DNA of 64,000 nucleotides from Nitrosopumilus sp. (lineage in GTDB: Archaea; Thermoproteota; Nitrososphaeria; Nitrososphaerales; Nitrosopumilaceae): NCBI GenBank assembly GCA_965238275.1, contig OZ250186.1:2144001-2208000 (forward strand), written 5' to 3'. The translations under genes were made by a program, and so were the position numbers. The stretch's first letter is position 1; each line of letters opens with the position of its first letter. Shown here in pieces: positions 2,736 to 14,780 of the stretch. The notes under the pieces are model-generated. The model did no database searches, was not told where the DNA came from, and worked only from the letters and a program-made list of their open reading frames with translations.

Positions 2736-3000
2736 GCACTTGTTTTAAAAGGTTATAGCGGCGAGCGAAAATTCGTGCAAACAGATCTCTCTGTAGCATG
2801 TCCTGATGCTCTTTCCGGCGCTCTGTCAGACCTTCCAATATTGTCGTCGTTGTCGGATCCAAGCCGACCTGTCGAATTGTTCATTCCAGAACCATCCGAT
2901 CCGTGATCCTCGCGCCTTGTGACGACCTCGACACCTGCAATGGTGCCTCCACGATTCCCGTGGGCTTGGCCGCCAGTCTCCTCCGTATGGAGACAGTCAT
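2736..3000 (-). ncRNA. Predicted omegaRNA (scaffold in tnpB 3' tail plus flanking guide), copy 1
   Basis: Hairpin 2872-2899 covaries with copy 2. Sequence is conserved up to the element end and diverges after it. The 5' boundary is approximate. Confidence 0.65.
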
Positions 3001-4198
3001 TATCCAAAATGTTTTTTGCCGCGTTCTTGTCGGCATGGTGGCACCATCCGCATGAGACGCAGACAAATGATTCGCCGTTCCTGGACTTTTTGTCCACTAC
3101 CCCGCAGGCAGCGCACCTCTGGCTTGTATGTGCGTGTTCCACGCGTCTTGAAATTCCGCCTTTCTTTTTCATCTGCCATTCAAGCTGGATCCTGAACTCG
3201 CCCATTCTGGAATAGGCCATCTCGCGGTTCAACCCCGTCTTTGAAGCAGCCCCGTTGGATCGCCTCATCTTGGTCAAATCCAGATCTTCCAGGAACAATA
3301 CGGACAGTCCTTTTGTTATCCGTCTGGCAATGTCGGCCTCGTTGTGTTTTTGCCTGTTTGATGTCTTTTTCAATTCATGTGCTATCTTGCGCCCGATCTC
3401 TTTCCATCTTCTGGAGCCTGCCTGGCATCTTGATCTAAGTGATTTCAGCTGATCAATCCTGTCGCCGTCATGCCTCTTGCAGCCTCCGGGGACATTGTGC
3501 AGTTTTTCGTTCCCATGCTCGTCTGCGACTGCCGCAAGGTGCCTGACTCCAAGATCTAGCCCTGCCTTGCATCCGCCGCCACCGCCTGTCGCGGGTTCGG
3601 GGTCTGGGACTTCTATCTGCAAATGCAGTTTGAATTCGCGATCACCATCCTTGGTCTTGCGCGTGGCCTTGCCTGTGATATCGATCATCTGGAATGACAC
3701 GAACCTGCCTTCCGGGATCTTTACGCGCGGCCTTACTTCCCCGAATCCGGGCAGAAATACGGCTCCACTGTCTCGCAGTTTTGGCTTTGCGCGTGAATTC
3801 AGCGAGCGCAGCCTGGTTGTTTTCCTGCCGCGCCTCATCAGGCCAGACGGCTCGGTCCACCGATTGTGCTTGTACGTTTTCTTTTTCCCCACCAGCTTGA
3901 TCTGTTTCTTGCGCCAGATGCGCTTGTTGTGCTTGAGCCGGTTTGCCTTGCGGAATTTGACTGCCGCCTGGAAAGCCTGTTTTGAGGCGGCCTCATGCAT
4001 GCGGACGCTGTTGGTCAGGTTGAATTCCCTGCGCCATCCTGTTATCAGGTTGTTGACATCAAACTGCGTGATCCGTGAGTGTGCAAGTTTCATCATGATT
4101 GTCATGTCGTAAATGATGTCTGTTTCCCGGGAGCATTTCACGATCTTGCGTGACAGTTCCCGAGATTGTGTTATCTTGATGATTTTACTGACAATCAT
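2753..4198 (-). CDS. tnpB: RNA-guided endonuclease TnpB
   Basis: RuvC-I GLDLG, RuvC-II FLEDL, CxxC-CxxC zinc finger, RuvC-III HADKNAAKNI. All three catalytic acidic residues are present. Confidence 0.92.
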   Translation of the reverse strand: MIVSKIIKITQSRELSRKIVKCSRETDIIYDMTIMMKLAHSRITQFDVNNLITGWRREFNLTNSVRMHEAASKQAFQAAVKFRKANRLKHNKRIWRKKQIKLVGKKKTYKHNRWTEPSGLMRRGRKTTRLRSLNSRAKPKLRDSGAVFLPGFGEVRPRVKIPEGRFVSFQMIDITGKATRKTKDGDREFKLHLQIEVPDPEPATGGGGGCKAGLDLGVRHLAAVADEHGNEKLHNVPGGCKRHDGDRIDQLKSLRSRCQAGSRRWKEIGRKIAHELKKTSNRQKHNEADIARRITKGLSVLFLEDLDLTKMRRSNGAASKTGLNREMAYSRMGEFRIQLEWQMKKKGGISRRVEHAHTSQRCAACGVVDKKSRNGESFVCVSCGWCHHADKNAAKNILDNDCLHTEETGGQAHGNRGGTIAGVEVVTRREDHGSDGSGMNNSTGRLGSDNDDNIGRSDRAPERASGHATERSVCTNFRSPL

Positions 4199-4600
4199 AC
4201 CTGTGGTTGGGATTTATTTTCTTAAAAAGGATCTCAAAAAATTGCACGAACTCCCATGTGTTACGGGCATCCAAACCCGTTGATGTTGTGTGTTGACAAT
4301 GCGTCTGGTCCAGTCCGGTTTGGGTTGGTCGGGCAGTTTTTTAAAGATTTGTGGATCAATTGGGTAATTTTAGGCATGTCCGTGTCCGAACCGGCAGGCA
4401 CTGCGTGCGTATCCAGAAGAATGGTGCACAGCTGCCGCTAGGAATCCCCTCCCCCGTATCCGGAGGAAATGGTAGGCCAAACTCCTACAGTCAATATCAT
4501 TTTCGGCAAGCCGGGGGGACGGAAGGGGGCGTTGAGTCGCCCTCCGCTTGTGCAGGGGCGGCGAAACGCACCCCGGGTTCTCCAGTTTCCCCCAGGACGC

Positions 4601-5672
4601 CTAGACCTTGGATTCGGCAATGCGTTTTATTCTCTGGAATTTTCGTCTTACAAGATCCCTGTCCTGGGTCCTGTACTCGGTGCTGTGCTCAAGCATCTCC
4701 CAGACCCATTCGAGCATCTGCCTGGCCACGGCGACCCTTGCCTTCATGGGTCCTATGCGGGTTGCCAGTCTTTGGTAGCGCGCCCCTATCCGGACATCGT
4801 GCTGGACGGCAACTAACGCGGCCTCGACCATGGCGCGGCGCAGCCAGACGGAGCCGCGTTTTGTGATGCCGCCGGTCCTGACGGTCTCCCCGCTGTTGTG
4901 GTGTTTTGGCACCAGGCCGGCGTATGAGGCCATCTTTTCGGCGTCAGCAAACCTGCTGTGGTCGACTATTTCGGCAAGTATGGTTACTGCCGTAATGTAG
5001 CCTATTCCGGGTATGGTCATGATCAGCTGTGCCCTCCTGTCGCTCATTGCAATCCCGGCTACCTTTTTTTCAAATTTTGCCACCTGCTTTAGTACGGTAT
5101 CGATGGTGGCCAGATGCGACTGCACCGCCATGCGGTCAACCTCCCTCAGGGGCACGGCCTGCAGCCACTCGAGTCCAGGTCCCGTAAAGTCCTCCCTTGG
5201 GCTGCTCGTGCGGGTATTTGGCCAGGATCGCGTGGATGCGGTTCTTTGGGGCGGTGGCGTACATCTTCATGCCCAGGCGGGTGCGGGTCAGTTCGCGCAG
5301 GTCCCGCGCGGGCTTGTCGGCCACGAACGACTCCGGGATCATGTCCAGCCTGCACAGGTCTGCCAGCTTTGCCGAGTCTGCCTTGTCGTTTTTGTAGACG
5401 GTTTCGGTTATGATCTTCGTGTTGTGTGGGTGGGCCAGCAGGGTGTTGATGCCGACATCCTCGAGCATGTCGTGCACGACTATCCAGTAGTTGGCCGTGG
5501 ATTCGCAGACGGCCGTAGCCGGCACGTATCCTTCCTTGCGGATCATCTTGACGAATTCGGTTATTCCCCGGACATTATTGTCAAATTCAGCCTGCCTTAG
5601 TATCTTGTTGGTTTTGCCCTTGATGGTTGAAACGCATTTCTTTTTGTGAACGTCTATTCCAATGTAATACGT
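4601..5672 (-). pseudogene. IS110-family recombinase (DEDD + Tnp_20 domains), frameshifted at ~5180, start codon apparently ACG
   Basis: IGIDVHK, CEST, KNDKADS, IPGIG and AGLVPKHHNSG motifs. Shine-Dalgarno GGAGGTGA 4 nt before ACG at 5672. Confidence 0.9.
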
Positions 5673-5699
5673 GCTATCACCTCCTTTGCAGCATATCGG

Positions 5700-5863
5700 A
5701 CCCGACCAGCGGAAAACTCCCATTCACCGTCAAAGCGGTATTTGACCATCCGCATACCTTGAGTCACTCTTTCGCACGCCATCATAAGTGGCAAGTTCGT
5801 GTCGACTCTCAGGTCCAACAGGGTAAATGCCATGATCACCGTTACAACGGCAACACATGGCGT
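5700..5863 (-). ncRNA. Predicted bridge RNA (target-binding loop 5808-5761, donor-binding loop 5753-5709)
   Basis: Two stem/internal-loop/stem units whose loop arms match the insertion target and the circle junction. Confidence 0.8.
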
Positions 5864-5973
5864 CTTTCGCTTTTCACTATAGTACAGGAACATGGTTTAT
5901 ACAAATAGGATCAACTCCCCCCATACATGGCAGTCGACTGTGATTTCCTGTGCGGTGTCCGGGCAGAACCGGG

Positions 5974-6852
5974 CTATACGCCTGATACTGTCTCGAGTAT
6001 GGAGTTGCACGAGGTTTTGATGAGGCCGGCCTGCTCCTCCAGCAGGCCAGAGTCGGCCCCCGTGTCAAAGGCGGTTCTCAGTACATGGAAGAGATCCCGC
6101 CTCTCATCCAGGGTGCCCTTGATTCTTTCAAAGTTCTGCCTGTTGACATACCCCAGATAAAAATAACAGTCAGTAGGCATGGAGTTTCCTAGGAAGAAAT
6201 CATATTTTGACCGGATGGTCCCAGAAACGCCTGCCCGGACCATGTCAGAGAATCCGATCGTTGATTTGAGCATCCGCTCAAGGAGGGTGGTAGTCGCCCT
6301 CTCCATTCCTATCGTCTGGGTCACAGACGAGATGTGCTCGTTGATGGGATTCTTGGGAAGCAGCCGAAGCGTCTCAAGCATGTGGGAGGGACTTGGTTTC
6401 CGATGGTTCAGGAGACATATCGCGTCTGCCAGGCAGTATGAGGCACATTTTTGCCAGAACGGGGCAAATGCGTCGGATGCTTGGATCCCCTTCATGGTTC
6501 TCTGAATGCAGAACAGCGCCTCGATCAGATTGTTCCGGGCAAGATTGGTAAAGAGTGCCGGCTTTTTTGCCTGGACCCTTGATACAAGCATTCTCAAATC
6601 CCACGACTCGTCCTGGATTATGTGCATCCCGTCATATCCGAGGAGAACCTTTGGGTCATTCCAGGACAGGGAGGCATGGCGGATGACGGCATACGAATCC
6701 CCGTACCGGACCGTCTCATGCCCGGATCTTTCGTCAAAGACAAAGACGTCATACCCGCATGATTCAAAATGGGTGCCGGCGGCCCTGCATCCCCCCAGTC
6801 CGGCCGGAAACGAGTCCAACCCCCTCCCCTCAAGAAGTCTTTTCAGATCCAC
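5974..6852 (-). CDS. Hypothetical protein, possible nucleotidyltransferase-like N-terminus
   Basis: 292-aa ORF with normal composition and a GG...YDVFVFD segment. Confidence 0.7.
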   Translation of the reverse strand: MDLKRLLEGRGLDSFPAGLGGCRAAGTHFESCGYDVFVFDERSGHETVRYGDSYAVIRHASLSWNDPKVLLGYDGMHIIQDESWDLRMLVSRVQAKKPALFTNLARNNLIEALFCIQRTMKGIQASDAFAPFWQKCASYCLADAICLLNHRKPSPSHMLETLRLLPKNPINEHISSVTQTIGMERATTTLLERMLKSTIGFSDMVRAGVSGTIRSKYDFFLGNSMPTDCYFYLGYVNRQNFERIKGTLDERRDLFHVLRTAFDTGADSGLLEEQAGLIKTSCNSILETVSGV

Positions 6853-7025
6853 ACCATGACAAATAGCAAAATTCCCTTAAAGGGTGTCAGCCCACAAAAT
6901 TTTACAAACCGCACAAAGTCAGAGTCCCCCCTGCTGTCAGTCCGGAATGGGTTCCGGCCGTGCCGCGTGCAAGGGCAGGTTCCAAGCATTTCCTTTAAAT
7001 TGAGAAACAGCCCGCCTTTTATCAA

Positions 7026-7100
7026 GCTCCTATAGTGTAGTCCGGTTAAGCATACTGCCCTCTCAAGGCAGTGACTCGGGTTCAAATCCCGATGGGAGCA
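7026..7100 (+). tRNA. tRNA-Glu(CTC)
   Basis: Cloverleaf with anticodon arm CTGCC-CTCTCAA-GGCAG and T-loop TTCAAAT. Confidence 0.95.
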
Positions 7101-7135
7101 TTGCATTACTAAAATAGTTAGGCTGCGTACACGTA

Positions 7136-7786
7136 GTGTTGAGCCTGAAAGAGATCAAACTCAAAGACGAATACCGGTCTGACACGAGCAACATCACAGA
7201 GGACTTTTTCATCCCGTGCCTTGAAAACTGCACGGAGTATCACAGGTGTACAGAGACGCTCTCAATCAAGGCGCTAATCATGATGGCTACAAGACTTGAC
7301 AACATTACAGACGGCACCACGGTGCTGAGAATGGTCATAGGCCACAGGCTCAGAGTCAGTGACCTGAACATGCTCATAAGGCTGTTCTCTGAAGGAGCCA
7401 GACTTCCCAGGGGAAAGCACGCAAAGACCATTCAACGGATAAAGGATGCAGTCAGACAGGGCAGCATTCAGGTCAGGATTGCAGTACCAAACTCAGATCA
7501 CATCATAGATTCCGTATCAGAAAGGGTTGGGATATTCAGGGACGGCGAGAACAACATGGTGGCATTTACCGGAACTTTTAGGGAGGCCATCGCATCCCCG
7601 ACAAAGGAGTTTGAGGCAATAGATGTCTTTACGTCATGGAATGACATGTCAAGGGTGAAAAGAAAGATGGAGCACTTTGAGCAGCTGTGGCAGAACAAGG
7701 CAAAACATCTGGACGTGTATGACTTTGTGCATGCAGAAAAAAAAAGCCTTCTCAAATACTCCTCGGACTGGCTGATGCAGTGCTAG
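7136..7786 (+). CDS. Stand-alone PLD-like domain resembling N-termini of SF2 helicases, HKD motif degenerate
   Basis: YRSD...DFFIPCL at the start and SERVGIFRD...VAFTG...FEQLW later in the protein. Confidence 0.65.
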   Translation: MLSLKEIKLKDEYRSDTSNITEDFFIPCLENCTEYHRCTETLSIKALIMMATRLDNITDGTTVLRMVIGHRLRVSDLNMLIRLFSEGARLPRGKHAKTIQRIKDAVRQGSIQVRIAVPNSDHIIDSVSERVGIFRDGENNMVAFTGTFREAIASPTKEFEAIDVFTSWNDMSRVKRKMEHFEQLWQNKAKHLDVYDFVHAEKKSLLKYSSDWLMQC

Positions 7787-8349
7787 GCCTCAAACGGCTC
7801 CTCTGGCGTGGCGGACTTGTTTTCATAAAAATTCATCCTGTTAATCTTGTAGTATATGACCTCGCCGCGGCGCTCAATGACTGCAATTATCGGCTCCTTT
7901 CCCATCTGCGTAATCTCGTCAATCTTTTTTTGCAGGGCGCCCATCCTCTCCTGCCGGCCTTCGCTGAGGCCAAATATGAGAAACTTGGCACCCTTTTGTC
8001 CATAGTCCCCCCTCTCATAAACCCTAAAATCAGAACCGAACCCAAAGCCGTCCTTTACCACATAGCCGCGATTGCGAAGGTCGCGATATATCAGGAATCT
8101 TGTCAGTATCTCAGGATCGGTCTTTTGGCATGTGCTGACAAAGGAGTCAAAGTCAGTCTGCCGTCCTCCCTTGGTCAGGGTAAGGCGGTTGGTGTACAGC
8201 AGGTAGAGCGTTTCAAACTGCTTTAAGACAAGTCTCTTTCCTTCGGCGTCTCCAAACCCCTTCTGTTCAAGCTCGTGGATCATCTCCCGGTCGGATATGT
8301 ATACGCGTGAGGAGATCAGCTTACCGGTAACCAGCGGGGTCTCATCCAT
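7783..8349 (-). CDS. endA: tRNA splicing endonuclease subunit
   Basis: YRDLRNRGYVVKDGFGFGSDFRVY motif. Confidence 0.9.
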   Translation of the reverse strand: MDETPLVTGKLISSRVYISDREMIHELEQKGFGDAEGKRLVLKQFETLYLLYTNRLTLTKGGRQTDFDSFVSTCQKTDPEILTRFLIYRDLRNRGYVVKDGFGFGSDFRVYERGDYGQKGAKFLIFGLSEGRQERMGALQKKIDEITQMGKEPIIAVIERRGEVIYYKINRMNFYENKSATPEEPFEA

Positions 8350-8567: not shown

Positions 8568-10209
8568 GTAAACACTCAGGTCCCCCCAATCCACCTTGTT
8601 AATTCAGACTGCGACTGTCATTGCAGGTACTTCGCATGGAGGAGGCTTGAATATTTTCCAGCCAGGATCCCTGATGAGCGATTCCACTGCGATGCGTGGC
8701 AGTATTCCCTGCTTGTGGCAGGTGCGCGCAACTGAAACAAGTACAGAAAAGACCTTCATTCCCTCCGCCACTGACAGCTTGTGGCGCACGTTCCTCTGTA
8801 GCACGACGGCGTCGCGTATGTCCCGTTCTGCATCGTTATTGTGTGGAGGCATGCCGGGGTACTGCAGATACGTAAACAGGTCGGGGGCCGCACCCTCAAG
8901 GGTGGTCTTGAAGGGGTGGGATTCCCCGTAGGAGGCGGCAATTCCAAGCACGCGTTTTTCCAGGTCCCGACGCTTCGCGGCATCAGCCGTGTCCAGATCC
9001 TTAATGTCATGATACATTTTGAGCAGCCTTTCGTACTGGAGCAGATCATTGCCGCCGTTCCTGATTGCCAGCTTTTCAGCCTCGCGGAGCAGGTGTACCC
9101 AGCACCGCTGTTTGATTGGAAACACGCTGTATCCGGCATACCCGTCCACCACGACAGGAATGCCCAAAAGCCCGGCAAAGTGAAGTTCCAGTACGGCAGC
9201 GGCCCTGGTGTGGGCCACCACCACGTATGTTGCGTCTTTTATGGTGACAAGCCACGCATAGCCCCTCTTGCCGTTGATCTTGATGTATGATTCGTCCATC
9301 TGGATGTAGGGCGCGTCTGCCATCCTGTCCATGATCTCCTTGTATGCGCCCTCCAGGAGGCGCTTTAGCGCCACGCGCGCATTCCATATGGTGTTGGACG
9401 AGATCTCAAACTTGTATAATGCGTTGAAATAGTATGCGACGGTCTGGTCCGTGCTTCTCTTGTTGTAGTATTCCAGCACGAATCCCAGCGCCTTGGGGCC
9501 CAGTGACGTGCCGCACAGCGTGGGATCCGGGGCGGCAGTTATTGTGCCGCATTTGCAGCATGCTGCCTTTTCCATCACGTATGCGATACATTTGATCCCA
9601 ATCGCGTCGTCGTCGGGAAAGTCATAGACCATCTTCACTTTTGGAGCCGTATGCTGGAGCGTCTTGCTTCCGCAGCTGCCGCACCTGCTTACGCCCAGGG
9701 TAATCGTTCTGCCTGCCTTGTTCTTGTGCGAAACTCCGACATGGCCCATGGGCGGTCCGCGGCCGGTATTGTTGTTTTTTGATTCTGCATCGCCTGCTTC
9801 CGGTTTTGTGCCATCTTCTTCGGGTTCTGCATCACCCCCTTTTGGTTCTGCATCCTTTTCACGCTCCTTCCGGAAGGCATCGCGCTCTGCATTGTACATG
9901 GAAATGGTGGATGATGACATGTGCTCGCTTTCGTATGCTGCAAGCTTTCTGTCACGTTCTGCCAGATCAGATCTCAATGAATCTATTTCACGTACAAGCC
10001 TGATTGTCTCCTTGGCCAACGTGTCCTCCATCTCTTTTACCTTGGTTCTGAACATTTCATTCTCTCCGGCCAGTTTTCTGAATTCCTCGCGCAGGAGCGT
10101 AAGATCGGATTTACTCATGTGGTGGTTTTTAGACGCTACGATCTAAATTGTGATGGTCTAAATGGATGCATGTTCTGGTCAATGTTTAGGCAGGGACCTG
10201 AGTGTTTAC
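8568..10209 (-). mobile_element. IS66-family single-ORF element, complete
   Basis: Perfect 17-bp TIR GTAAACACTCAGGTCCC. 8-bp TSD CATGCGCA at 8560-8567 and 10210-10217. Confidence 0.95.
8604..10118 (-). CDS. IS66-family transposase
   Basis: QMDES, VVDGY, QRCWVHLLR and HNNDAERDIR motifs, zinc ribbon and N-terminal coiled coil. Confidence 0.92.
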   Translation of the reverse strand: MSKSDLTLLREEFRKLAGENEMFRTKVKEMEDTLAKETIRLVREIDSLRSDLAERDRKLAAYESEHMSSSTISMYNAERDAFRKEREKDAEPKGGDAEPEEDGTKPEAGDAESKNNNTGRGPPMGHVGVSHKNKAGRTITLGVSRCGSCGSKTLQHTAPKVKMVYDFPDDDAIGIKCIAYVMEKAACCKCGTITAAPDPTLCGTSLGPKALGFVLEYYNKRSTDQTVAYYFNALYKFEISSNTIWNARVALKRLLEGAYKEIMDRMADAPYIQMDESYIKINGKRGYAWLVTIKDATYVVVAHTRAAAVLELHFAGLLGIPVVVDGYAGYSVFPIKQRCWVHLLREAEKLAIRNGGNDLLQYERLLKMYHDIKDLDTADAAKRRDLEKRVLGIAASYGESHPFKTTLEGAAPDLFTYLQYPGMPPHNNDAERDIRDAVVLQRNVRHKLSVAEGMKVFSVLVSVARTCHKQGILPRIAVESLIRDPGWKIFKPPPCEVPAMTVAV

Positions 10210-12966: not shown

Positions 12967-13230
12967 CCATACCCCGGAACTGACGCGGATCCGGCATCAC
13001 ATAGCCTGCAGGCCAAACCGCACCATGCCGTAGGACGTATTGGACTCACGGATTCGTGCGATCCGGAGATACGGCGCATGCCAAATCCCTTTATTGTCAT
13101 GGAACCGCACACACACATAGAGACAGTCACATGACCAAGTGCGGGGTGATGAGTAGGTCGACTGAAACGGGATGTGGAGACATGACCTGGGGTATTTGAC
13201 TGCATTAGGTTATGCCGTGTTTGGGTTCTG

Positions 13231-14720
13231 TAGTGAAAAGCGAAAGTTCGTGCAATTTTTTGGATCCCTTTTTAAGAAAACAAATTCTATCCACATACAT
13301 GATTGTCAGCAAACGCGTTACGATAATGCAGTCTCGGGAATTGTCACGCAAGATTGTAAAATGTTCCCTGGAAACAGACGTCGTTTACGACATGACCATA
13401 CTGATGAAACTGGCCCATCCCAAAATGACCCAGTTTGACGTGAACAACCTGATAACTGGCTGGCGCAAAGAATTCAACCTGACCAACAGCGTCCGCATGC
13501 ATGAGGCCGCGTCCAAGCAGGCCCTCCAGTCGGTAATCAAATTTAAGAAATCAAATGTGAAAAAACACGCAAAACGGATCTGGCGCAAGAAGCAGATAAA
13601 GCTCGGCAAGGCCAGAACGTACAGGCACAACAGGTGGACGGATCCGTCCAGCCTGATGAGGCGCGGCAAGAAGACAACCAGGCTGCGTTCGCTGAATTCG
13701 CGCGGAAAGCCAAAACTGCGAGACGACGGCACGGTGTTCCTGCCCGGACTCGGAGGGGTAAGGCCGCGCACGGAGATCCCCGAAGGCAGGTTTGTGTCGT
13801 TCCAGATGATCGACATTACAAACAAGGTCACGCGCAAGACCAATGACGGTGATCGCAGGTTCAAACTGCATTTGCAGGTAGAAGTTCCAGACCCCGAACC
13901 AGCTGCAGGCTGCAAGGCAGGGATCGATCTGGGCGTCAGGCACCTTGCGGCAGTCGCAGACGAGGACGGGAACGAAAAACTGTACAATGTTCCTGGCGGG
14001 TGCAGGCGTCACGACGGCGACAAGATTGACCGGTTGAAGTCACGCCGGTCAAAATGCGTGCGCGGTTCGCGCAAATGGGGAAAGGTCGGCCGCATGATAC
14101 AACGTGAATTGAAAAAGATATCCGACAGGCAGAAACACAACGAAACGGGCATTGCCAGGCGGATAACAAAAGGCCTGTCTGCGGTATTTTTGGAAGACAT
14201 GGATTTGACCAGGATGAGGAGATCCAACGGAAAGGCACCAAAGACCGGGTTGAACCGCGAGATGGCATACTCTAGGATGGGGGAGTTTCGGAGCCAGGTT
14301 GAATGGCAGATGAAAAAGAAAGGCGGAGTTTCAAAACGCGTGGAATACAAGAATACCAGCCAGAGGTGTGCTGTTTGCGGAACTGTGGACAAAAAGTCCA
14401 GAAACGGCGAATCCTTTGCCTGCACTGCATGCGGGTGGTACCACCACGCCGACAAGAACGCGGCAAAAAATATTTTGGATAATGACTGCCTCCACATGGG
14501 GGCTGGCGGCCAAGCCCACAAAAACAGTGGAGGCACCATTGCAGGTGTCAAGGTCGTCACAAGGCGCGAGGATCACGGTTCAGGCAGTCCTGCAAGGGAC
14601 AGCTTGACAAGTCGGCTTGGACCCGACAACGATGATTTTGGAAGATCTGACAGAGCGCCGGAAAGGGCATCAGGGCATGCTACGGAGAAATCTGTTTGCA
14701 CAAACTTTCGCTCGCCGCTA
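13231..14720 (+). mobile_element. TIR-bounded TnpB element copy 2, intact ends, no transposase
   Basis: Left end TAGTGAAAAGCGAAAGTTCGTGCAA vs reverse complement of right end TAGCGGCGAGCGAAAGTTTGTGCAA. TA at both termini. Confidence 0.85.
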
Positions 14721-14780
14721 TGGTACCAGTCACACTGCAGAGCCAGAACCCAGACGGCCCGCATAAGGAACCGCCAATAG
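13299..14780 (+). CDS. tnpB: RNA-guided endonuclease TnpB
   Basis: GIDLG, FLEDM, zinc finger and HADKNAAKNI. Close paralogue of 2753-4198; start set by alignment (MIVSK). Confidence 0.92.
   Translation: MIVSKRVTIMQSRELSRKIVKCSLETDVVYDMTILMKLAHPKMTQFDVNNLITGWRKEFNLTNSVRMHEAASKQALQSVIKFKKSNVKKHAKRIWRKKQIKLGKARTYRHNRWTDPSSLMRRGKKTTRLRSLNSRGKPKLRDDGTVFLPGLGGVRPRTEIPEGRFVSFQMIDITNKVTRKTNDGDRRFKLHLQVEVPDPEPAAGCKAGIDLGVRHLAAVADEDGNEKLYNVPGGCRRHDGDKIDRLKSRRSKCVRGSRKWGKVGRMIQRELKKISDRQKHNETGIARRITKGLSAVFLEDMDLTRMRRSNGKAPKTGLNREMAYSRMGEFRSQVEWQMKKKGGVSKRVEYKNTSQRCAVCGTVDKKSRNGESFACTACGWYHHADKNAAKNILDNDCLHMGAGGQAHKNSGGTIAGVKVVTRREDHGSGSPARDSLTSRLGPDNDDFGRSDRAPERASGHATEKSVCTNFRSPLWYQSHCRARTQTARIRNRQ
14470..14740 (+). 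ncRNA. Predicted omegaRNA, copy 2
   Basis: GNRA hairpin 14580-14607 covaries with copy 1. The guide would be the flank after 14720. The 5' boundary is approximate. Confidence 0.65.

Follow-up and report, generated by a model that had tools for sequence, protein, structure and literature searches.

A predicted two-loop bridge RNA with IS1111-type guide order upstream of the recombinase of an IS110-family element from Nitrosopumilus and its mainly archaeal relatives

RNA-guided recombination by a bridge RNA was first described in 2024 (Durrant 2024, PMC11208160; Hiraizumi 2024, PMC11208158). Subterminal repeats of 2-3 bp characterize the IS110 group and repeats of 7-17 bp the IS1111 group, and the 'vast majority' of these elements obey a rule for the position of the IS110 or IS1111 RNA (Durrant 2024, PMC11208160). 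In the seekRNAs of the IS1111 family the match to the top strand lies 5' of the match to the bottom strand, which is the reverse of the order in IS110-type elements (Siddiquee 2024, PMC11187229). Here we describe an IS110-family element in a stretch of 64,000 nucleotides from Nitrosopumilus sp. (assembly GCA_965238275.1, contig OZ250186.1, positions 2,144,001 to 2,208,000; hereafter the window). Positions 5709-5753 of the window very probably represent the loop that binds the donor in a bridge RNA of about 100 nt, with the target-binding loop at 5808-5761, contained within a left-end non-coding RNA of about 175 nt. Guide-RNA position and arm polarity, which have been treated as linked and used to split IS110 from IS1111, appear to be separable in the clade of this element, and their separability bears on the origin of both groups and on the question of which arm must hold the core for strand exchange.

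Exceptions to the position rule are already in print. Among over 350 ISfinder entries, classed by where their long non-coding region lies, 186 have it downstream, 123 upstream and 26 on both sides, and 17 have none; ISMtsp17, a relative of IS1111, belongs to the upstream kind, and the diverged relatives ISHvo10 and ISAcp5 have both (Siddiquee 2024, PMC11187229). The passages of that paper that deal with ISMtsp17, ISHvo10 and ISAcp5 describe no RNA, guide arms or structure for them, and a search of full-text literature, with supplementary tables outside its reach, found no paper on the guide arms or structure of upstream-region IS1111-type elements or of IS110-family elements from Nitrosopumilaceae. 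The upstream layout is a published exception; the RNA of such elements is newly described here.

The anchor for comparison is IS621, the sole element in our set that could be tied to an ISfinder name (through its structure and its PGAP name). The plasmid and E. coli annotations otherwise read 'IS110 family transposase' only, and the Protein Data Bank contains no IS1111-type recombinase. Four copies in E. coli W, with a product that reaches 688 bits when compared with the IS621 chain of the solved structure, served as reference; annotation assigns a fifth copy, which is frameshifted, to the IS621 family. In these copies the flanks are ATCAGGC-CT|TGTATTATCC ... AACAGTAT|CT-ACG. The 5' arm of the target loop, AUCGGGCCU, copies the left flank plus CT, the 3' arm of the target loop, CGUAG, is the reverse complement of CT+ACG, and the 5' arm of the donor loop, ACAGUAUC, copies the right end. 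Within the IS621 core the first base is the less conserved one and the second is almost invariant (Hiraizumi 2024, PMC11208158).

In the window, the minus strand from 5753 to 5709 reads GCGG-AUGGUCAAAU-ACCG-CUUUGA-CGGU-GAAUGGGAGUUU-UCCGC, which bears out the loop sequence that a first-pass annotation of the window had picked out by eye. The two loops and the predicted structure around them are as follows.

5709..5753, minus strand: donor-binding loop; its inner stem and arms covary in relatives
5749-5745, minus strand: 5' arm of the donor loop, AUGGU; pairs with left-end bases 3-7
5723-5717, minus strand: 3' arm of the donor loop, AUGGGAG; equals the last 5 right-end bases plus AG
5761..5808, minus strand: target-binding loop; stems 97-100% paired with compensatory changes, arms covarying with the flanks
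5801-5794, minus strand: 5' arm of the target loop, CACGAACU; reverse complement of AG+TTCGTG, that is, core plus right flank
5775-5769, minus strand: 3' arm of the target loop, GCGAAAG; copies the left flank plus AG
5829..5861, minus strand: predicted 5' stem-loop of the non-coding RNA, from the minimum-energy fold only
5696..5705, minus strand: predicted 3' strand of a basal stem whose partner, 5809-5818, would close both loops, from the minimum-energy fold

The minimum-energy fold of the left end (5863-5690, z = -2.3) consists of a 5' hairpin followed by two internal-loop modules inside the basal stem. Spacing around the 3' arms is equal in both loops, with GU-GCGAA-AG-AGU in the target loop and GA-AUGGG-AG-UUU in the donor loop, and the reading of AUGGG-AG as right end plus core stands as first proposed. 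With the inner stem as anchor, the 5' arms of the donor and target loops are in register, also as proposed; the match of the donor 5' arm had been put at 4 nt, and this was too short, since AUGGU pairs with the left-end bases GCCAT in five pairs, one of them G.U. The apical loops of the two modules had been called alike, which holds in the window and does not extend to relatives, where the full loop sequences vary. A hairpin of GUCAAA with UUUGAC, which had been named as a competing fold, is absent from the minimum-energy fold, and most relatives no longer have the complementarity for it. Scanning 3500-8000 against Rfam under permissive settings returned a single match, the tRNA at 7026-7100, and thus no described RNA family for the left end.

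The ends of the element could be placed by comparison with uninterrupted sites, and the features concerned are listed here.

4253..5863, minus strand: IS110-family element, 1,611 bp, with left end ACGCCATGTG... and right end ...CACATGGG; placed by intact targets and same-genome copies
5864..5865, minus strand: core dinucleotide AG, left copy; comparison with intact sites
4251..4252, minus strand: core dinucleotide AG, right copy; comparison with intact sites
5852..5860, minus strand: left subterminal inverted repeat CCATGTGTT, 9 bp, element bases 4-12
4254..4262, minus strand: right subterminal inverted repeat AACACATGG, 9 bp, 1 base short of the right end
5866..5882, minus strand: left half of the interrupted target (CTATAGTGAAAAGCGAA), the outer portion of the terminal repeat of a TnpB element
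4225..4250, minus strand: right half of the interrupted target (TTCGTGCAATTTTTTGAG...), running on into the TnpB element
2753..4198, minus strand: TnpB gene of the host insertion sequence (PF07282, PF01385; NF040570)

Uninterrupted copies of the target in the same genome read ...GTGAAAAGCGAA-AG-TTCGTGCAA..., and intact ends of the TnpB element read CTATAGTGAAAAGCGAA-AG-TTCGTGCAATTTTTTGAG. In the window this target is split as ...GCGAA-AG|ACGCCATGTG...(element)...CACATGGG|AG-TTCGTG. Because the intact sites show the same sequence uninterrupted with AG present once, the element must extend from 5863 to 4253 with AG on both sides, and the ends and circle junction predicted beforehand were correct. 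Site-specific insertion with a short core on both sides, by which members of the IS110 family are recognized, is found for the window element, and the core recurs among its relatives: AG precedes the left end in 33 of the 34 that have a left flank, and follows the right end in 20 of the 22 with a confident right end. The subterminal repeats are 9 bp long in the window element and 10-11 bp in relatives.

The genome, 2.2 Mb in one contig, carries three more copies with both ends (one 99.9% identical that has lost about 310 bp of the 3' region, one 92% identical with an insertion, and one internally deleted), together with four left-end-only fragments and one right-end-only fragment. The TnpB element is present in about 19 genomic copies ending where the right end of the IS110 element abuts. 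A 13-nt site, GCGAAAGTTCGTG, is intact 22 times in the genome, 11 times in one end of the TnpB element and 11 times inverted, about 1.49 kb away, in the other end. Since this site stands inverted at both ends, the target is the terminal inverted repeat of that element, and one RNA-guided mobile element would thus land in the terminal repeats of another. The host is a TnpB-only insertion sequence that occupies 2750-4252 and 5864-5882 in the window, with a second copy at about 13225-14725. Its termini are imperfect inverted repeats of about 28 bp (TATAG[TC]G...GCGAAAGTTCGTGCAA), with a bridge-RNA target at each end; classical IS200/IS605 elements are not known to have terminal inverted repeats.

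Relatives' loci came from pattern scans in three sets, one of 11, a second of 26 from metagenomes and a third with the best 80 of 379 from genomes. Protein identity is 45-100% in Nitrosopumilaceae, 35-40% in Bathyarchaeia, Thorarchaeota, Methanosarcinales and Methanophagales, and 28-30% in Bacteria. Pairing in each stem was scored on a MAFFT alignment of 35 distinct left-end RNAs, with the following outcome.

Target outer stem: 99.5% of cells paired, compensatory change in 4/6 pairs
Target inner stem: 100% of cells paired, compensatory change in 1/4 pairs
Donor inner stem: 97.7% of cells paired, compensatory change in 3/5 pairs
Donor outer stem: invariant, no compensatory change

Across the alignments the donor inner stem is 93-98% paired. 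A covariance model built from the two modules, with matches reaching E values up to 4e-5, finds the RNA in 69 of 100 relatives' loci, nearly always on the strand of the gene and ending 30-60 nt before it; with filters off, two further loci are added, both from Bathyarchaeia. In the 69 distinct model-aligned sequences 96.5% of cells are paired and 14 of 20 pairs show compensatory change. The number of compensatory cells is 180, compared with 51.4 in shuffles, none of 500 shuffles being as high, and slid controls are 35-46% paired. Both loops are thus internal loops, each bounded by two stems that covary. A covariance model of homologous left ends had been suggested as a check, and stems and donor arms alike proved to covary among relatives.

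The model was also run on a sample of 151 genomes of the class, of which 8 matched, the window's own genome included. The others, one of them G131, are 7 of 80 other genomes of the same family; there was no match in 70 genomes from eleven other families, nor in 32 others of the same genus. Such a patchy distribution is as expected of a mobile element.

Evidence that the loops act as guides comes from their arms, which change from element to element together with the DNA they are predicted to recognize. For the target 3' arm, the five variable bases match the left flank of the same element at 4.26 of 5 positions on average, 18 of 34 being perfect, with 24 different 5-mers, compared with a mean of 1.72 over 1,088 cross pairings with the flanks of other elements. 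The target 5' arm matches its own right flank at 5.5 of 8 positions and foreign ones at 3.98 of 8, and scores of 6 or more are reached by 9/22 own pairings vs 24/442 cross pairings. Within the genome of the window, the target 3' arms of the eight left ends (GCGAAAG, GCAAAAG, TCAAAAG) each adjoin an identical heptamer. Four variant copies occupy matching sites; for three variants 2, 4 and 1 intact paralogous sites fitting both arms were located in the same genome, and none was found there for a fourth. Natural reprogramming would have produced at least 24 different target arms in the clade and four within one 2.2-Mb genome.

The donor loop follows the ends of the element in a similar manner. 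Right ends could be placed with confidence in 22 of 35 elements, and 20 of these 22 end in ...ATGGG|AG. The donor 3' arm equals the right-end 5-mer plus core in six variants (ATGGG|AG, ATGGA|TG, ATGGA|AG, ATGGC|TG, ATAGG|AG and ATAGG|TG), the matching right end having been located in 8 of the 10 loci checked for arm variants. Those that depart from the arm of the window element are listed.

Donor 3' arm AUGGAUG: right end plus core ...CATGGA|TG, in L095 and L099
Donor 3' arm AUGGAAG: right end plus core ...CATGGA|AG, in L119 and L046
Donor 3' arm AUGGCUG: right end plus core ...CATGGC|TG, in L039
Donor 3' arm AUAGGAG: right end plus core ...CATAGG|AG, in L102
Donor 3' arm AUAGGUG: right end plus core ...CATAGG|TG, in the four-copy L089 family

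The core letters in the 3' arms of both loops agree, being AG in most elements and TG in L095/L130 and L039; L088 deviates. Opposite left-end bases 2-7, the donor 5' arm forms 4-6 of 6 pairs in 13 distinct combinations of arm and end, six of them perfect, and two types of Watson-Crick pair occur at each of the four variable positions. Its A-rich bases face left-end base 1 and the core in the alignment of relatives. These natural variants give strong evidence of covariation for the donor 3' arm and evidence of moderate strength for the 5' arm.

It could be argued that the protein recognizes the ends mainly through the subterminal repeats, and that the second loop is structural, with arm matches that are relics without a guiding role. 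In favour of this are the length of the repeats (9-12 bp), a short donor 5' arm that fails to reach the core and is weak in the cross-pairing control, and the proposal that flanking target sequence helps to unite IS1111 ends (Siddiquee 2024, PMC11187229). Against it, the donor 3' arm follows the right-end 5-mer and core through six variants, the core letters of the donor loop change along with those of the target loop, and compensatory pairs are seen at all four variable positions of the 5' arm. We regard recognition by protein as very unlikely to be the principal mechanism here.

Several points nevertheless weigh against a guiding bridge RNA. The alignment of 69 sequences was fitted by the model and is biased towards the structure. 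On the MAFFT alignment of relatives, 49.9% of cells are paired in the 5' stem-loop and 57% in the basal stem, and both are unsupported. In the window the donor 5' arm makes five pairs only and misses the core, and its cross-pairing control separates weakly (own 5.15 vs foreign 4.49 of 6); most differences among left ends are transitions, which are tolerated by G.U pairing. Within Nitrosopumilaceae both the donor 3' arm and the right end are invariant, and covariation of this arm rests on fewer, more distant lineages. The match to the right flank is poor in 13 of 22 elements. All four copies that retain transposase sequence in this genome are broken. As to expression, the evidence is weak: three short contigs in assemblies of RNA libraries, from one sponge metatranscriptome and two runs only guessed to be RNA, cover 5617-5823 at about 88-92% identity; they come from relatives and could reflect DNA carry-over. 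In all, a comparison of four runs yielded four short contigs of relatives, at <95% identity, over 5617-5823 and 4978-5034, with none from one run, and proves neither transcription nor its absence. The handshake-guide bases (two bases 3' of the 3' arms) showed no consistent pattern with the partner DNA by eye, without a dedicated analysis.

As a guide, the RNA would work as follows. The donor 3' arm would pair on the bottom strand with the last five right-end bases plus AG, and the donor 5' arm on the top strand with left-end bases 3-7. The target loop would act alike on the insertion site, its 3' arm being a copy of the left flank plus AG and its 5' arm the reverse complement of AG plus the right flank. 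By analogy with IS621 and the seekRNAs, the element would leave as a circle joining right end-AG-left end, a recombinase tetramer with its RNA would keep the circle junction bound to the donor loop and the target bound to the second loop, and strand exchange would take place at the core. That a transcript is made, that the recombinase binds it and that recombination requires it are predictions from sequence. Archaeal recombinases as compact as these (about 355 aa), together with their RNAs, are candidates for trial as bridge recombinases.

The RNA lies directly upstream of the transposase gene and, in this lineage, may overlap its start. The parts of the gene and its surroundings are given below.

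5136..5723, minus strand: N-terminal transposase piece with DEDD/RuvC-like domain (PF01548, E 4.8e-19); ends early through a 2-bp deletion
4601..5155, minus strand: C-terminal transposase piece with Transposase_20 domain and GLxPxxxxSG motif (PF02371, E 1.5e-28); frame one base further on
5677..5684, minus strand: Shine-Dalgarno-like GGAGGTGA before the transposase, present in all aligned relatives
5670..5672, minus strand: ACG where relatives start with ATG or TTG, from the alignment
5721..5723, minus strand: ATG, in frame and within the donor 3' arm, which may serve as start in this lineage; the frame is open, 372 aa, in the intact relative L014
4253..4600, minus strand: 3' non-coding region, 348 nt, confined to the GC-rich lineage

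A DEDD_Tnp_IS110 domain followed by a Transposase_20 domain, the order expected in the IS110 family, is present, and NF033542 covers profile positions 1-166 and 183-342 over the two pieces. Aligned with IS621, the intact relative L014 places GIDVH, CEST, NDKAD and NSGE opposite D11, E60, D102, D105 and S241 (residues as given in Hiraizumi 2024, PMC11208158), and the catalytic residues D, E, D, D and S are invariant in an alignment of four proteins; the frameshift of the window copy parts the two halves. Intact frames occur in the relatives L014, L015 and L016. Relative to intact relatives, 2 bp are missing at about 5189/5188, and the window copy is defective by this frameshift. The same 2-bp deletion is found in a copy at G000:C1:827296-828957, which is 99.9% identical, lies at a separate genomic place and likewise stands in the end of a TnpB element. 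Either a dead element was mobilized in trans, or the whole composite was transposed together.

The position of the hairpins allows a different view of them, as a mere 5' leader that controls translation of the transposase, for example by hiding or exposing the AUG of the 3' arm, with the matches to the ends as by-products of the subterminal repeats. An in-frame AUG does lie in the donor 3' arm, the usual start is ACG in this lineage, a Shine-Dalgarno-like motif follows within 40 nt, and both donor arms are in or beside inverted repeats, a possible source of self-similarity. A leader, however, has no reason to follow host DNA outside the element, as the arms of the target loop do; the donor 3' arm tracks core letters and right-end 5-mers across six variants, and AT-rich relatives keep the loop despite a stop after the upstream AUG. 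A leader without guide function is highly improbable. Besides guiding, the hairpins may have a regulatory side role, and in the GC-rich lineage translation may begin inside the guide RNA at the donor-loop AUG.

Comparison with IS621 shows both shared and differing features. In both elements the RNA lies in the left end, upstream of a DEDD/Ser recombinase; both have a target and a donor internal loop that are pseudo-symmetric, with the arms of each loop pairing with opposite DNA strands; and in both a 2-nt core flanks the element on either side and one donor arm is imperfectly paired. Unlike in IS621, where the 5' arms do so and the 3' arms pair with the top strand, it is the 3' arms of the window element that copy the left flank and the right end. 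The core on the coding strand is AG or TG here and CT in IS621; the donor arm that lacks the core is the 5' one in the window element, and left-end base 1 is also unreached; the subterminal repeats have 9-11 bp as opposed to 2-3 bp; and the protein is a distant relative, matched by phmmer at E 2e-18 in two separate stretches. Across the clade the first core base is A or T and the second, G, is fixed.

The guide order, with the top-strand match 5' of the bottom-strand match, is shared with the IS1111 seekRNAs of ISEc11, ISPa11, ISKpn4 and ISPst6, and the length of the subterminal repeats falls inside the IS1111 range. The window element has the IS1111 order, and the AG that had been noted in place of CT is one face of the published reversal of guide order between IS1111 and IS110. 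As in IS4321/IS5075, the target lies in the end of another mobile element. In contrast to the IS1111 elements, where the seekRNA is downstream of the transposase, the RNA of the window clade is upstream, and its donor loop is a simple internal loop as in IS621, whereas many IS1111 RNAs are reported to have their donor-binding bases in a multi-loop (Durrant 2024, PMC11208160). ISEc21 resembles the window element in its upstream non-coding RNA and in a conserved site inside other insertion sequences, and differs in that its top-strand match lies 3' of the bottom-strand match (Siddiquee 2024, PMC11187229). The window lineage also has both non-coding regions, about 190 nt upstream and 348 nt downstream, as do ISHvo10 and ISAcp5, with which it was compared by description only.

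Held against what distinguishes the two groups, the element shows the repeats and guide order of IS1111 and no downstream guide RNA; it shows the left-end upstream RNA of the IS110 group and neither the copying by 5' arms, nor repeats of 2-3 bp, nor a CT core. The mixture of traits that had been noted is real and clade-wide, comprising the upstream RNA, the 9-11 bp repeats and the AG core, which is TG in some lineages. By its sequences, the clade, which is mainly archaeal, joins IS1111-type polarity and subterminal repeats with a predicted upstream RNA of IS621 shape. The suggestion of a possibly distinct subtype is upheld insofar as the mixed traits are kept across the clade, and less so in that the swapped guide order and the upstream layout had already been published (Siddiquee 2024, PMC11187229). 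It is highly unlikely that this is an ordinary IS110-group bridge RNA of the IS621/ISEc21 type whose polarity was misread from the wrong strand: its upstream position, its two IS621-like loops and the fact that the opposite strand yields a CT core with 5' arms as copies of 'left' sequences would suit that view, but the RNA and the gene themselves fix strand and orientation, the four E. coli W copies use 5' arms for the RNA-side flank plus CT and for the far (right) end where 3' arms are used here, with the DNA flipped the RNA gene would come to lie at the donor half opposite to that of IS621, the repeats exceed those of the IS110 group (Durrant 2024, PMC11208160), and a plain flip fails to give the IS621 core pattern (Hiraizumi 2024, PMC11208158), because on the coding strand the first base varies and the second is fixed in both.

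Relatives were also compared by recombinase trees and by layout. Open reading frames were read from the 100 loci, 68 of them with at least 300 aa and 60 of those distinct. A 43-row tree was obtained after dropping 17 near-duplicate, truncated or misread rows, and a 35-row tree after dropping nine more near-duplicates and adding IS621; both are quick IQ-TREE runs, sparse and without ISfinder references, and they assign the clade to no ISfinder subgroup. The layouts of relatives are as follows.

Bacterial L129: 5' non-coding region about 61 nt, 3' about 335 nt; subterminal repeats present
Bacterial L136: 5' about 69 nt, 3' about 308 nt; subterminal repeats present
Bacterial L131 (four copies): 5' about 90 nt, 3' about 260 nt; subterminal repeats present
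Enterobacterial plasmid L137: 5' about 75 nt, 3' about 267 nt; subterminal repeats 12 bp
Archaeal L089: 5' 193 nt, 3' 54 nt; subterminal repeats 11 bp
Archaeal L084: 5' 163 nt, 3' 38 nt; subterminal repeats present
Archaeal L095: 5' 129 nt, 3' 82 nt; subterminal repeats present
Nitrobacter plasmid L141 (four copies): 5' 267 nt, 3' 108 nt; subterminal repeats 8-9 bp

A branch with SH-aLRT 82 has all elements with an upstream region, archaeal ones and L141, on the same side. Sister to them are the bacterial L126-L136, to which three of the four long-3'-region elements belong, and IS621, L137 (enterobacterial, with IS1111 layout) and L055 are far off on long branches. L141, from Nitrobacter hamburgensis plasmid 1, is 1,593 bp long and present in four identical copies, two of them with unrelated flanks; it branches beside the archaeal clade. 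Homology of the RNA with bacterial relatives that have a long 3' region was considered and dropped: four such elements gave no significant model match, and with filters off nothing better than E 3.1 was obtained in L126-L129, L131, L136 and L137.

These trees fit, without proving it, an origin of the archaeal clade among IS1111-like elements by relocation of the RNA gene relative to the ends. Because the excised form is a circle, such a relocation would amount to a circular permutation; the idea is speculative, since a homologue in the 3' regions of the bacterial elements is not found by the RNA model. Carried further, it leads to a proposal that we consider doubtful and offer tentatively: elements of Nitrosopumilaceae, Bathyarchaeia, Methanosarcinales/Methanophagales and Thorarchaeota, and at least one bacterial plasmid element by its layout of gene and non-coding regions alone, could be a third class, defined by architecture, among RNA-guided DEDD insertion sequences. 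Such a class would follow a circularly permuted IS1111 plan, the ends having moved from between the RNA and transposase genes to a place upstream of the RNA gene. It would have kept the polarity and repeats of IS1111 together with a two-loop, IS621-like RNA whose donor 5' arm leaves out the core, and a start codon inside the donor loop would, in one lineage, couple folding to translation.

The 3' region of the GC-rich lineage merits separate mention. Elements of this lineage measure about 1,530-1,860 bp, compared with about 1,290-1,330 bp in AT-rich relatives, which have almost no 3' non-coding region, and about 310 bp of it are deleted in the otherwise identical copy at G000:C1:827296-828957. 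The 348-nt region has no Rfam match. It was considered as the seat of a second, IS1111-style guide RNA, and its first 310 nt contain no match of at least 7 nt to target or donor; the RNA model, moreover, matches the window copy at 5707-5810 only.

Some left ends occur by themselves. Four truncated ones without transposase (G000:C1:1920595-1920787, 1925891-1926123, 1089330-1089476 and 1091184-1091322) are solo guide-RNA genes with differing target arms, and extra copies are mentioned in a similar way for the small RNA of ISPpu9 (PMC12288879). Between two of these solo left ends lies a second IS110-family gene, intact and encoding 371 aa (L023, G000:C1:1923542-1924531). Its product is 28.7% identical to that of L014 and falls within the archaeal clade in the trees; its upstream region has a different fold and matches the RNA model merely at E 1.9.

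Among the relatives, contigs binned as Dehalococcoidia and Poribacteria (L015/L061, L062, L067, L085) carry elements near-identical to that of a Cenarchaeum metagenome-assembled genome (L063), which points to mis-binning or to transfer inside one community. Elsewhere in the window, the minus strand at 8604-10118 contains an open reading frame of 504 aa that, by eye, may be transposase-like.

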